A stretch of DNA of 48,223 nucleotides from a virus (taxonomy: Duplodnaviria > Heunggongvirae > Uroviricota > Caudoviricetes): IMG/VR virus record IMGVR_UViG_2897375277_000006, one strand, 5' to 3'. Within the stretch, counting starts at the first letter, position 1; the number at the start of each line of letters is the position of its first letter. Of the stretch, positions 40,501 to 46,500 are shown piece after piece. The position numbers are program-made.

Positions 40501-43500
40501 AGACGGCACAGGAAAACCGGTACAGAACTGCACAATCCAGCTGAAAGCAAAACGTAACAGCACCACGGTGGTGGTGAACACGCTGGCCTCAGAAAATCCG
40601 GATGAAGCCGGGCGTTACAGCATGGACGTTGAGTACGGTCAGTACAGCGTTATTCTGTTGGTGGAAGGGTTCCCGCCGTCACATGCCGGGACCATCACCG
40701 TGTATGAAGATTCTCAACCCGGTACGCTGAATGATTTTCTTGGTGCCATGACTGAGGATGATGTCCGTCCGGAGGCACTGCGCCGTTTTGAGCTGATGGT
40801 GGAAGAGGTGGCGCGTAACGCGTCCGCGGTGGCACAGAACACGGCAGCCGCGAAGAAGTCAGCCAGCGATGCCGGCACATCAGCCCGTGAGGCGGCAACC
40901 CATGCGACTGATGCTGCGGACTCCGCACGCGCAGCCAGCACGTCAGCCGGACAGGCCGCGTCGTCGGCTCAGTCAGCGTCTTCCAGCGCAGGAACGGCAT
41001 CAACAAAGGCCACTGAAGCATCAAAAAGTGCTGCCGCTGCAGAGTCCTCAAAAAGCGCGGCGGCCACCAGTGCCGGTGCCGCGAAAACGTCTGAAACGAA
41101 TGCTGCAGCGTCACAACAATCAGCCGCCACTTCTGCATCCACCGCGACCACGAAAGCGTCAGAAGCTGCCACCTCAGCCCGGGATGCGTCGGCTTCAAAA
41201 GAGGCGGCAAAATCATCAGAAACGAGCGCAGCCTCGAGCGCCAGTAGTGCAGCTTCCTCGGCTACGGCGGCAGGAAATTCCGCGAAGGCGGCAAAAACGT
41301 CCGAGACGAACGCTAAGTCTTCTGAGACGGCAGCGGGACAGAGCGCCTCAGCTGCGGCAGGCTCAAAAACAGCGGCTGCGTCGTCTGCCAGTGCCGCGTC
41401 AACAAGTGCCGGGCAGGCCTCAGCCAGTGCCACCGCCGCCGGAAAATCGGCAGAAAGCGCCGCATCATCCGCTTCAACAGCCACAACAAAGGCTGGCGAA
41501 GCCACTGAGCAGGCCACGGCAGCAGCGAGGTCAGCTTCCGCAGCGAAGACATCCGAAACGAACGCGAAAGCGTCGGAAACCAGCGCAGAATCCTCAAAAA
41601 CGGCTGCCGCATCGTCAGCCAGTTCGGCGGCGTCATCGGCATCATCTGCGTCTGCTTCAAAAGATGAGGCGACCAGACAAGCGTCAGCAGCGAAGGGCAG
41701 CGCCACGACGGCATCCACGAAGGCGACAGAGGCAGCTGGCAGTGCGACGGCGGCAGCACAGAGCAAAAGTACGGCAGAATCCGCGGCAACGCGCGCCGAG
41801 ACAGCGGCAAAACGGGCAGAGGATATTGCATCCGCTGTGGCGCTTGAGGATGCGAGCACGACGAAAAAGGGGATAGTACAGCTCAGCAGTGCGACCAACA
41901 GCACTTCCGAGTCACAGGCGGCAACGCCAAAAGCCGTTAAGGCCGCGTATGACCTGGCTAACGGGAAATACACCGCACAGGATGCAACGACAGCACAGAA
42001 AGGGATAGTCCAGCTAAGCAGCGCGACTAACAGCACTTCCGAGTCACAGGCGGCAACGCCAAAAGCCGTTAAGGCCGCGTATGACCTGGCTAACGGGAAA
42101 TATACCGCTCAGGACGCTACGACAGCACAAAAAGGAATTGTCCAGCTCAGTAGTGCAACCAACAGCGCATCTGAAACGCTTGCTGCGACACCGAAAGCAG
42201 TGAAAGCAGCTAATGACAATGCGAATGGTCGGGTACCTTCTGCCCGTAAGGTGAATGGTAAGGCGCTTTCAGCGGATATAACACTGACACCGAAAGATAT
42301 TGGTACGCTTAACTCAACAACTATGTCATTTAGCGGTGGTGCTGGTTGGTTCAAATTAGCAACGGTAACCATGCCGCAGGCGAGTTCTGTTGTTTCAATT
42401 ACGTTGATTGGTGGGGCTGGATATAACGTCGGTTCACCTCAACAGGCAGGTATATCTGAACTTGTTTTGCGTGCAGGTAATGGTAATCCGAAGGGGATTA
42501 CTGGTGCTTTATGGCAGCGCACATCGGCAGGGTTTACAAATTTTGCCTGGGTCAATACATCTGGTGATACTTACGATATTTACGTTGCAATCGGAAATTA
42601 TGCGACTGGTGTAAATATTCAATGGGATTATACCAGTAATGCCAGCGTGACGATTCATACGTCACCAGCATATTCTGCTAATAAGCCGGAAGGGTTAACG
42701 GACGGTACAGTTTATTCACTCTATACGCCATCAGAGCAGTTTTATCCGCCTGGCGCACCAATCCCGTGGCCATCAGATACCGTTCCGTCTGGCTATGCCC
42801 TGATGCAGGGGCAGACTTTTGACAAATCTGCATACCCGAAACTTGCAGCGGCTTATCCGTCAGGCGTTATTCCTGATATGCGTGGCTGGACGATTAAGGG
42901 CAAGCCAGCCAGTGGTCGTGCCGTATTGTCTCAGGAACAGGACGGCATTAAATCGCACACCCACAGCGCCAGCGCATCCAGTACGGATTTGGGGACGAAA
43001 ACCACATCATCGTTTGATTACGGCACTAAATCCACGAATAACACTGGTGCACATACCCATAGTATTAGCGGGACAGCAAATAGTGCCGGTGCGCACCAAC
43101 ACAAGAGTTCCGGTGCATTTGGTGGCACGAACACGAGCATTTTCCCTAATGGTTATACCGCGATTTCAAATCTAAGCGCGGGGATTATGAGCACAACAAG
43201 CGGTAGTGGCCAGACTCGTAATGCAGGGAAGACATCATCAGATGGTGCTCATACCCACTCGCTGTCCGGCACTGCTGCAAGCGCAGGCGCACATGCACAT
43301 ACTGTCGGTATTGGTGCTCATACGCACTCCGTTGCGATTGGGTCACATGGACACACCATCACCGTTAACGCTGCTGGTAACGCGGAAAACACCGTCAAAA
43401 ACATCGCATTTAACTATATTGTGAGGCTTGCATGATTACGCTCATTCTTTCTGCACCAGTAACAGAAATGGCTGAAGCATTTAAGCGGGTATTCGCAAAT

Positions 43501-46500
43501 GCAGATAATGTGAATATTGTCGGAAAGCCATTTGAAACAATCAGGGAATTTGACTGCATGGTAAGTGCGGCAAATAGTTTCGGCCTGATGGATGGCGGTG
43601 TTGATGCCGCCATTACCGCATTCTTCGGTACTCAGTTACAGTCCCGCGTTCAGAATCATATTCTTCGTGAATATCTAGGCGAGCAGCCTGTAGGTTCTGC
43701 ATTTGTTATTGAAACGGGGCATAATCATCATCCCTGGCTGGTACATGCGCCAACAATGCGTGTTCCGCTGACAATTGACGGAACAGACGCTGTATATAAC
43801 GCAACCTGGGCCGCTCTGCTTGCCATCTTTCAGCACAATAAACACGCAACGACAGACAGGAAAATAAAAACGGTGGTATTCCCTGCAATGGGAGCCGGAT
43901 GTGGTCAGGTGCCGTTTGAAAGTGTTGCCCGGCAGATGAAGCAGGCATGGGATAACTTTAATAAAAAAACAGAATCAATTAACTGGGAATACGCACAATC
44001 CCGCCAGTCGGCAGTATTTGGCACATATGCATACTGTCCGGGTAATTCTGTTTGCCGTTATGCGGATACTAAATATATTGGATGCGGCGATTATCGGACG
44101 TATTGCTCACGTTCCGGGCAGGTCTGTATTAACCCTGAACATCAGGCTGATGATGTACTGATACAACATCAGGCTAATAACCGGTTTCGCCCTGGTTCGC
44201 ATATACACCGGATTAATCCAGAAAATCCCGTAGGTAATGTCATCTCTGGCGCACATAGCCACGGAAGTAGCATCGTTATTGGTGCTCACACCCATACGCT
44301 CAATAAACAATATTCTGTCTCTGATATTAAGTAGAGGTGAACATGGATTTCAGAATGAGTGAACAACCACGGACCATAACAATTTATAATCTGCTGGCCG
44401 GAACTAATGAATTTATTGGTGAAGGTGATGCATATATTCCGCCTCATACAGGTCTGCCAGCAAACAGTACCGATATTGCACCGCCAGATATTCCGGCTGG
44501 CTTCGTGGCTGTTTTCAACAGTGATGATGCATCGTGGCATCTTGTTGAAGACCATCGGGGTAAAACAGTTTATGACGTGGCATCAGGGGACGCGTTATTT
44601 ATTTCTGAACTCGGTCCGTTACCGGAAAATGTTACCTGGTTATCGCCGGAAGGGGAATATCAGAAGTGGAACGGCACAGCCTGGGTGAAAGATGCAGAAG
44701 CAGAAAAACTGTTTCGGATACGGGAAGCGGACGAAACAAAAAATAGCCTGATGCAGGTAGCCAGTGAGCATATTGCGCCGCTTCAGGATGCGGTAGATCT
44801 TGAGATCGCAACGGAGGAAGAGAAATCGTTACTGGCCGCATGGAAGACATATCGGGTGTTGTTGAATCGTGTTGATACATCAGTAGCACCGGATATTGAG
44901 TGGCCGACAATGCTGGCGTTATAGTCCGTAAATGCCAGTCTGAGGGAATGCTGAAAGGATAGAATGAGCAGCCTGACACACAAAAAAGGAGTACATCTCC
45001 GTTTTTTATGTTGCCATATCCGGGGGATATTTGTTAGATAAAAAGAGGAACTAATTCAACAGGGAGTTAAATTAATGCCGATAAATCTGACATCTTATTG
45101 GGGACCACAGGGACTGAAAGTTGTCCAGGCGGTTGTGTTTTCTATTCTGTTAGCGTTGATAATAATGTCTTTATATTGAATTAACTATTATTAAATGAAA
45201 TATCTGACTGAATAAAATAAATTACTGAATGAGAATTCTATGCCATTTACAACTCTAAGTATACCAAGTATATCTCAATTATCTCCTGCAGGAGTACAGG
45301 CTTTGCAGTCTGTTGCCAGACACGAAAGAGTAATAAGAATATCCTCTGGTAGCGGGCGATACTCTGTTTCTTACGTTCAGATGGTCGATGGATTTTCAGT
45401 TGAGCCTGTGAGAGGGGGATTGCTGGATAGATTATTAAGACGTGAACACCGAATGGATGAGAGAGCCGCAGCTTTAGAAAGACGATTAAATGATGGTGCT
45501 ACTTATTTAACTGTATTCCGTAGTTATTTTATGAGACAGGTGGCAGAATCCAGAGGAAATAAAACAAGAGAATTTATATTACAAGGAAAAATAAATTCTT
45601 GTGTGTTTCATCTAGACTCTAATCACTTTTCTTGCCCGGAGTCATTTTTGACATGTCCGATAACGCTGGACACACCTGAGACTGGTGTTTTTATGAGGAA
45701 TTCCCGAAGTTCTGATATATGTAGCTTATATGATAAGGACGCGTTACTGCAACTTATTGAAACTGGAGGGGCTCACCCTCTGAGTCGAGAATCGATAACA
45801 GAATCAATGATTATGAGACAAGATGAATGTCACTTTGATTCAAAAAGAGAAGCTTTTGTTGTAAGTGATATTTAATGTCTTAAATAGAATTTTGTGAAAA
45901 TTAATGCGCTACTAAAGCAAAATCAAGTTATTGAAATGGTGGTGAGGGGATGCCTGTAGATTTAACACATTATATTTTGCCTCAGGGTAATTTGATGTCT
46001 AATATTCCTCAGGAAACTTGGTCTGAGATACGTAGTCAGAGTGTTAGTGGGGAGTCTCTGATCAGGTTGGGGAATTTGATGGTATCAATACGTCCCATGC
46101 AAATAGATGGATATTTTATTGGGCGTATTAATAACAGTGCTTTGTCTGAGGGAGATACTCGGCTTGGACATCAGTATATAGATAATATTGAACGGACTCT
46201 TAATGTTGGTGGTTTGTCAAGCCGTGAGGTTGAAGTATTGCGAGAAATAGAGGTGCTCGAAAATATGACGTTATTATCTAATCATCAGTCAGACAATCTG
46301 TTGGGTAAAATTGAGTTATGCTCATTTAATGTGGAAAATGAAAAGCTGGAAGGATCAGTGATATCACGAACATGTCCCATTACATTATGTGAACCAGAAA
46401 AAGGGGTTTTCATGAGAAACTCTATGAGCTCAGATGTATGCACATTGTATGATAAAACAGCATTAATTAATCTTATTGATATGAAAGCTCCCCATCCTCT

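Follow-up and report, generated by a model that had tools for sequence, protein, structure and literature searches.

A Macro2-like macro-domain gene inserted between the side tail fibre and chaperone genes of a lambdoid prophage

Phage macro domains have a proven counter-defence role in the case of AdfM of PhiKZ and T4, which acts against DarT2 (PMC13309987; bioRxiv 10.1101/2025.11.20.689424), and a 2022 comparative-genomics survey, in which only ~1% of siphoviruses encoded a macro domain, argued that those of phages target mainly soluble ADP-ribose (ADPr) derivatives (PMC9503650). The only studied member of the Macro2-type clade is yeast YMR087W (Ymx7), which converts Appr-1''-p (ADP-ribose-1''-phosphate) to ADP-ribose (PMC6397177). 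We analysed a macro-domain gene in a 48,223-nucleotide stretch of Caudoviricetes DNA (IMG/VR record IMGVR_UViG_2897375277_000006, the whole of which is referred to as the window), where it sits between the side tail fibre gene, stf, and the tail fibre assembly gene, tfa. The product, 300 amino acids long, is named 'macro domain-containing protein' by PGAP and belongs to PHROG 2613 (E=1e-148), which is annotated as 'unknown function'. The existence of this gene and its macro annotation are already known from Gifsy-1, PGAP and PHROG; an earlier reading of the window (the original prediction) has to be corrected on this point, in that the gene is not peculiar to the window but belongs to a large annotated family. 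New are four results: the protein can be placed in the Macro2/Ymx7 type and has a conserved triad; its gene is cleanly polymorphic as an insertion; the order fibre-macro-chaperone is invariant over three phage lineages; and the tail is needle-like, with statistical support, and relaxed in its evolution.

The suspicion that the N-terminal part of the protein is a macro domain was borne out by profile search, fold prediction and structure comparison. The Pfam Macro profile (PF01661) matched residues 44-169 over its full length (profile positions 1-118 of 118) at E=7.7e-19, its score of 68.2 bits being far above the cutoff of 22. An AlphaFold2 (AF2) model built from a 65-sequence alignment (15 close homologues and 50 diverse stand-alone relatives) had a predicted local distance difference test (pLDDT) score of 80-97 over residues 1-196, adopted the three-layer alpha/beta/alpha macro fold, and was disordered beyond residue 234; a model from a 15-sequence family alignment had a mean pLDDT of 52 and was not used. 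All 50 top Foldseek matches in the PDB were macro domains or proteins designed on them, the best being yeast Ymx7 (1NJR; E=4.3e-11, 198 columns, rmsd 2.9 A). The same entry ranked first (E=5e-16) when the subfamily profile was compared with PDB sequences. From the AF2 model, Foldseek and the profile comparison, the Macro2/Ymx7-like macro domain proper was placed at residues 1-195 (43432..44016, + strand). A signal peptide was absent, and residues 3-7 form strand 1 of the fold (pLDDT 96).

In the profile alignment, N80, D90 and H145 of Ymx7 lie opposite N48, D58 and H105 of the phage protein. All three phage residues are invariant across the 65-sequence alignment, as are G55, G56, G154 and G158 of the two glycine loops, D54-G55-G56-V57-D58 and G154-x-G156-x-G158. 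The three Ymx7 residues are said to have been proposed as its catalytic triad, in 2005 by Kumaran et al. Ymx7 and the phage protein also have the same loop motifs (xNSxGxxxGGxD and PGxGxGxGxVP), and Ymx7 was the best match by both profile and structure. However, the two are ~21% identical, and where Ymx7 has a helical C-terminal domain the phage protein has a fibre-like tail rich in Cys and His. Ymx7 is also a cellular ADP-ribose-1''-monophosphatase, whereas the macro gene is a phage late gene whose activity is predicted. We are confident that the fold is that of a macro domain; its affinity to Macro2 and the predicted processing of ADP-ribose follow from sequence and model. The conserved part of the protein appears to be an ADP-ribose-processing domain that is catalytically intact.

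A generic reading as an ADP-ribose-binding or -hydrolysing macro domain could therefore be refined, in that profile, Foldseek and BLASTP comparisons place the domain as Macro2/Ymx7-like and as neither a MacroD- nor a DarG-type de-ADP-ribosylase. The Pfam Macro_2 profile (PF14519) scored 24 bits on the window protein, below its threshold of 27, and the match took in no more than positions 81-184 of the 290 in the profile; a precomputed match to it is present in many close homologues. No DarG membership was found with NCBIfam NF048014 (12.4 bits against a cutoff of 250) or with the PADLOC DarG model (14.4 bits over 38 residues). BLASTP against PhiKZ gp104 (AdfM) gave nothing significant (E of at least 0.5), and T4-type Tk.4 was a weak fold match only (E=3e-5). 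AdfM (PhiKZ gp104, T4 Tk.4), as a phage macro domain that provides accessory counter-defence by removing ADP-ribose, is a functional precedent for the window protein, but AdfM and DarG are of a different macro class, no tail-fibre locus has been described for either AdfM gene, and the site of action of PhiKZ AdfM is the phage nucleus.

The 300-residue open reading frame (ORF) was confirmed at 43432..44334 on the + strand, overlapping the end of stf as originally described: its ATG shares three bases with the stf stop codon TGA in an ATGA overlap (GCATGATT), with GAGG at 43423-43426, 5 nt 5' of the ATG, and its own stop is TAG at 44332-44334. A programmed frameshift joining Stf to the macro protein was considered and rejected; a slippery heptamer was absent at ...AGGCTTGCATGA, and an overlap of the ATGA kind is a typical sign of termination-reinitiation. 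At the other end, the original prediction had the gene stopping 2 bp before tfa. This holds if tfa starts at GTG 44337, but the likelier start is ATG 44343, which gives 8 bp. We consider ATG 44343 the most likely start, and hence a macro-tfa gap of 8 bp, because it is the PGAP tfa start in the strain GPEC389 locus (where the macro gene is 100% identical) and aligns with the tfa start of loci that lack the macro gene; it also has GAGG 5 nt upstream. With this start tfa spans 44343..44924 (+) and matches Pfam Caudo_TAP (E=2.8e-43), and the C-terminal part of Tfa resembles Mu Tfa U (5YVQ). A hidden Markov model (HMM) scan of the macro ORF with Caudo_TAP (PF02413) gave no match, that domain being carried by the downstream gene.

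Upstream, stf occupies 40472..43435 (+) from the PGAP-type ATG at 40472, the first in-frame start being GTG 40466. Its product matches Pfam phage_tail_N, Phage_fiber_2, Collar and Phage_fiber, and ends in a tip like that of T4 gp37. The last 244 residues match the gp37 receptor-binding tip 2XGF (E=4e-84) up to the common C-terminus, and the protein ends in the canonical ...NYIVRLA. Because the 2XGF match reaches the shared C-terminus, Stf is complete, and the possibility raised earlier, that a split stf gene has the macro ORF as its usual 3' part, fails. Two further features of Stf, in the region of residues ~110-450 and 464-590, are a long low-complexity stretch rich in Ala, Ser and Thr and, after it, three near-identical 41-aa Phage_fiber_2 repeats. 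The DNA of the low-complexity stretch yields spurious long ORFs in other frames and on the opposite strand, one of them at 40969-42036 (-; 355 aa).

Comparison of stf-tfa junctions bore out the claim that the gene is inserted between the two. Junction alignments with E. coli HCM-28C-2 and with stfQ/tfaQ of K-12 Qin delimit a clean segment of 909 bp at 43434..44342 (+) relative to loci without the macro gene, the empty-site junction GCAT-A-ATGG reading GCAT-[909 bp]-ATGG in the window. Sequences ~95% identical to the stf 3' end plus tfa occur in 4,732 of 5,426 complete E. coli genomes, and stf and tfa were directly adjacent in every sampled macro-less locus; in the K-12 Qin example the match spans ~1,166 bp of the record. 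The macro gene was found in 128 of the 5,426 genomes, at 109 chromosomal and 22 plasmid places. Since thousands of near-identical fibre-chaperone pairs lack it, the gene is optional for fibre assembly. The insert starts at its own ATG and uses a Shine-Dalgarno sequence which, where the site is empty, belongs to tfa, and it supplies a new GAGG (44334-44337) for tfa, whose codon 2 changes from GCA (Ala) in empty sites to GAT (Asp). The insert has a GC content of 46%, and stf one of 55%. In a pattern scan, promoter- and terminator-like sites in the insert were no commoner than in shuffled sequence, and none bracketed the gene.

Selection was estimated as pairwise Nei-Gojobori dN/dS on the IMG/VR alleles, namely the E. 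coli 300-aa group and the Salmonella group. Values were 0.09-0.14 for the macro domain, 0.15-0.40 for the Cys-rich linker that follows it, and, for the C-terminal tail with its HxH motifs, 0.85 in the E. coli 300-aa group and 0.39 in the Salmonella group. What selection maintains is the enzyme domain, with strong purifying selection on the macro domain; the tail is under weak constraint or else is diversifying. A dN/dS of 0.09-0.14 in its own frame also indicates that the macro ORF is a functional gene. It is hardly credible, then, that the ORF is a decaying remnant or a piece of stf with no separate function. The similarity between tail and fibre, which is motif-level only, would suit such an origin, but the origin itself is refuted by the complete Stf, by the purifying selection on the macro domain, and by the number of homologues (1,712); in addition, the only nucleotide matches of the tail to stf are 15-17 nt long.

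An IMG/VR scan returned 80 loci with the gene, and 67 of these were parsed (the gene start was located by script). In 67 of 67 the upstream ORF was a fibre ending in ...NYIVRLA whose stop overlapped the macro ATG by 4 nt, and in 67 of 67 the downstream ORF was Tfa. Lambdoid carriers are the window phage and Gifsy-1 of S. Typhimurium LT2 (STM2588.1n/STM2587, labelled 'contains pfam01661' for years); P2-like carriers are phage Chuche, SEN4/5 and the locus L085; and P1-like plasmid prophages also carry the gene. In all, 1,712 members of the family could be detected, from the genera Escherichia, Salmonella, Citrobacter and Erwinia, and the full architecture amounts to about one 50%-identity cluster. 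Gifsy-1 STM2587, PHROG 2613 and the PGAP proteins are true members, 63-100% identical and in the same stf-macro-tfa order; they do not differ in essentials, only in tail length and in number of HxH motifs (proteins of 269-300 aa). In the literature STM2587 is mentioned only in an operon list (PMC2225428), and the SEN4/5 paper does not discuss the macro gene (PMC5261728).

Beyond this architecture, the macro subfamily is broad. At E<1e-30 it comprised 244 representatives, most of which are 195-215 aa long and stand alone, from Chloroflexota, other bacteria, eukaryotes, jumbo phages and giant viruses. Stand-alone phage homologues lie in non-structural regions of jumbo phages, and others occur in giant viruses; the Noxifer homologue (L094, 3983-4630), for example, is among small hypothetical genes and not tail genes. 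Stand-alone proteins of Chloroflexota and other bacteria (P0306, P0309, P0322, P0330 and P0371) and of jumbo phages are publicly named 'phage tail protein'. We judged this label to be an annotation apparently propagated from the enterobacterial prophage genes that lie beside tail fibres. Three stand-alone bacterial homologues had ordinary chromosomal neighbours, with no partner ADP-ribosyltransferase. On one bacterial chromosome (L093), tandem stand-alone Macro2-like paralogues (4349-4996 and 5001-5645) lie beside a HicB-like antitoxin gene and FemAB-family genes. Among longer relatives with N- or C-terminal extensions none was fused to a tail fibre; the extensions include DUF6508 and Hpt, and eukaryotic relatives have WD40-type or phosphatase-type regions, as judged by eye only.

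C-terminal to the macro domain, the family alignment delimits a Cys-rich linker (residues 196-240; 44017..44151, +) with conserved C202, C208, C225, C232 and H237, and a variable His-rich tail (residues 241-300; 44152..44331, +) with three GxHxH motifs, GSHIH255, GAHSH273 and GAHTH284. A beta-hairpin was predicted in the linker at moderate confidence (pLDDT 53-68), and the linker may bind metal; in the AF2 monomer the tail had pLDDT below 50. The original prediction had noted that the C-terminus repeats a GAHxH motif found in Stf, and the likeness stands up to statistics. Stf carries six G[AS]HxH motifs, and translating all 48 kb of the window in six frames gives only 12, of which 9 fall within Stf and the macro protein. 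The tail matched the Stf tip by BLASTP (E=0.002), and hhalign of 13 macro tails against 12 fibre C-termini gave 95% probability (E=4e-8) over 20 columns only, pairing VxIGAHxHxVxIGAHxHT of the tail with the two HxH units that come last in the gp37-type needle. A scan of three tails gave that of the window protein no Pfam fibre-repeat match at E<=10 (Phage_fiber PF03335 included), and PHROG fibre families matched the tails marginally (E=0.014-0.3). Blastn of the tail against stf gave only the 15-17-nt matches, at HxH codons, which rules out a recent duplication of fibre DNA into the tail; by sequence, the likeness is homology or mimicry at the level of the motif and not a recent copy. The unit VxIGAHxHx(5-8)IGAHxHT aligns in the same way with the last two needle HxH units of the T4 gp37 tip (2XGF) and of lambda-, Mu- and P2-type fibre ends, but this likeness covers ~20 columns only, and the macro tail is without the collar, the head domain and the ...NYIVRLA ending. 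In tblastn against 50,697 phage records the tail matched macro genes only, and a homologue search with the C-terminal 115 residues alone returned 3 fragments only, which is uninformative on other fusions of the tail module.

The tail varies considerably across the family. Among 44 unique tails there were 0-4 HxH motifs per tail, with His and Cys making up 7.5% and 5.3% of residues. Common E. coli alleles have individual motifs degraded (GTPTH, GAYNH), and Salmonella alleles have the exact HxH-x6-HxH spacing of the fibre. One gene in the same slot (L086) is 203 aa long with the tail missing, and another (L081), of 253 aa, has the linker and no HxH. In the P2-like L085 (2068-2970) the region after the macro domain is mostly swapped for very Cys-rich sequence (CGC..CDCGCGWG..CRCG), of a composition that recalls metal-binding tails such as SlyD's; four HxH motifs are kept, together with the ...GAHxHGVKK ending of the Erwinia allele. 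A further protein (P0141, 190 aa) is a chimera of the C-terminal third of the macro protein (from ~residue 160), with Cys linker and four HxH motifs, and of another part that we take, reading the sequence by eye, for a fragment of a phage lysozyme or chitinase; rearrangement in the remains of a prophage is its probable origin. Inspection of alignments revealed no consistent signal of co-variation between tail and fibre sequence. The architecture first described, a macro domain joined to a fibre-like tail, is thus real in the window but not obligatory, as the tail is weakly constrained and sometimes absent.

These observations bear on whether the protein is an accessory borne by the fibre itself. 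According to such an explanation the HxH tail, aided by Tfa, would trimerise into a short iron or zinc needle or dock on the Stf tip, so that virions display macro domains; the domain could then serve at the cell surface as an additional head, either binding a ligand or acting as an enzyme, in a position like that of the T2-type gp38 adhesin. In the trimeric needle of the gp37 tip, iron ions are reportedly coordinated by the HxH motifs (work of Bartual et al. from 2010). The match to the last two needle units by hhalign and BLASTP, the fibre spacing reproduced in Salmonella alleles, and the persistence of a Cys/His-rich HxH tail in L085, where the sequence itself has been replaced, would all be expected of a fibre-borne protein. 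So would the invariable slot between fibre and chaperone with its translational coupling, and a partner that is always the same ...NYIVRLA gp37-type fibre. However, the tail evolves near neutrality in E. coli, with degraded motifs, and lacks HxH in L081 or is missing altogether in L086; it has no Pfam fibre-repeat match and is unstructured in the AF2 monomer. In contrast to receptor-binding tips, the macro domain shows high conservation when E. coli and Salmonella are compared. The fibre moreover shows no adaptation for a partner, because the Stf/Tfa flanks are ~95% identical with and without the gene. We know of no extracellular ligand of the ADP-ribose type. The parallel with T2-type gp38 and the Tfa/gp38 chaperones lies in a gene directly 3' of a gp37-type fibre gene, but there is no sequence similarity in Pfam and PHROG scans, and a genuine Tfa follows separately here. 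Taken together, we regard a fibre-borne accessory as unlikely, although it is the main rival to the explanation that we favour.

A role in fibre maturation would draw on some of the same features. The Cys/His tail might deliver or buffer metal for the HxH needle, or the macro domain might strip off ADP-ribosyl groups with which an enzyme of the host had modified the fibre or Tfa; the Stf tip is homologous to the T4 gp37 needle, the tails are rich in His and Cys, and the gene sits between the fibre gene and the chaperone gene. Against such a helper, thousands of loci assemble the same fibre and chaperone with no macro gene, and metal delivery by the tail leaves the conservation of the macro domain unexplained. 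ADP-ribosylation of fibres is, to our knowledge, not known. We therefore rate a maturation helper as a long shot.

The explanation that we favour, and hold tentatively at somewhat below even chances, is that the gene encodes a late-expressed hydrolase of ADPr derivatives carried as counter-defence cargo of the host-range cassette, with the Cys/His tail oligomerising or docking the enzyme. Our data show the fold, the conserved putative catalytic residues, the purifying selection, the polymorphic insertion, the strict synteny and the signals of coupling; which substrate the enzyme has, its part in counter-defence and what the tail does are inferred. In outline, an accessory, non-structural Macro2-type enzyme would bind ADP-ribose and hydrolyse a substituent on its 1'' carbon. 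The cassette entered the stf-tfa junction as a discrete unit, and the protein would be made late, from the tail-fibre mRNA, by translational coupling to stf and alongside fibre and chaperone; late expression with the tail operon is suggested because the insert is without a promoter or terminator of its own. The enzyme would then remove an ADP-ribose-derived product of host immunity and so protect late-stage phage production. Candidate substrates are a soluble signal or toxin, such as ADPr-1''-phosphate, histidine-ADP-ribose (His-ADPR) or glycocyclic ADP-ribose (gcADPR), a macromolecular ADP-ribosyl adduct being less likely. The gene would spread through its linkage to the host-range cassette, the most often exchanged phage module. 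As for the Cys/His tail, which resembles the metal-binding HxH needle of the fibre, its probable function is to bind metal and hold the enzyme in oligomers, or else to dock it where Stf and Tfa assemble; some lineages dispense with it. A rationale for co-expressing an ADPr hydrolase with precisely these two genes is offered by the report that a side tail fibre and its chaperone determine the activation of type II Thoeris, the signal of which is His-ADPR (2026 preprint, bioRxiv 10.64898/2026.06.04.730250). Macro2 chemistry, in which a group is removed from the 1'' carbon of ADP-ribose, would by analogy fit signals of the His-ADPR type.

Several points weigh against a counter-defence enzyme. Counter-defence genes are mostly early or packaged, and late expression would be unusual. 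A purely cytoplasmic role leaves the fibre-like tail unexplained, and NCBIfam, PADLOC and BLASTP detected no similarity to those macro domains that are proven to act against DarT. No functional study of any member of the macro family was found in the literature. The one Macro2 enzyme that has been studied is a housekeeping Appr-1''-p phosphatase, reportedly without de-MARylating activity (PMC6397177), and the Thoeris link comes from unrelated Pseudomonas N4-like phages (bioRxiv 10.64898/2026.06.04.730250).

A more specific version would make the macro protein an antidote to the alarm raised by its own phage. By analogy with Thoeris, a TIR/Thoeris-type sensor would detect the fibre-chaperone assembly, and the co-translated, tail-docked enzyme would cleave 1''-linked His-ADPR or gcADPR on site. 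We consider this improbable as stated. If true, no macro domain before it would have been an enzyme directed against Thoeris, and it would also be the first case of a counter-defence gene in physical linkage with the structural trigger that it protects.

The genes around the fibre module bear on a further alternative, in which the macro gene is a moron for lysogenic conversion or host benefit, or acts in superinfection exclusion, being expressed from the prophage and altering host ADP-ribose metabolism or the fibre assembly of competitors. A Lom/Ail outer-membrane beta-barrel gene, lom, lies at 39808-40407 (+; Pfam Ail_Lom, E=5e-122), between J and stf as in lambda. Directly 3' of tfa are two tandem genes of the NleG family of type III secretion system (T3SS) effectors, at 45240-45875 and 45950-46594 (+; Pfam T3SS_NleG, E=2e-44 and 2e-38). 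With two NleG-family effector genes beside tfa, the lambdoid prophage bears cargo of attaching-and-effacing pathogens. In strain GPEC389, tfa is instead followed by dinI and the chromosomal gene prfC. A 440-aa ORF at 46901-48223 (-) reaches the end of the window and has no Pfam match; in its N-terminal and central sequence it presumably resembles the T3SS effector NleA/EspI. Optional cargo in a prophage with lom and two nleG-type genes nearby would suit lysogenic conversion, as would a GC content below that of stf, and prophage-encoded defence is common. The insert, however, runs from the ATG to 8 bp before tfa with no promoter or terminator of its own, unlike classical morons, and the ATGA coupling links its translation to the late gene stf. 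In Gifsy-1, STM2586-2588 were treated as one operon with at least one gene responsive to DNA damage, which is weak evidence in the same direction (PMC2225428). A conversion or exclusion gene is accordingly doubtful in our estimation, and of the three functional options originally proposed this one is disfavoured, while the counter-defence and fibre-associated options stand.

Among the tools that viruses use against immunity based on ADP-ribose, macro domains form a major class. Hundreds of prophages of E. coli and Salmonella, the textbook Gifsy-1 included, have the family described here, always inside the module whose exchange changes the host range of a phage. If the counter-defence explanation is true, host-range cassettes would bring both a receptor key and an immunity bypass, which would bear on the prediction and engineering of host range. 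If the protein is instead fibre-borne, it would be a new kind of virion-displayed enzyme. On either reading, the gene offers a tractable entry to the almost unstudied Macro2 clade.

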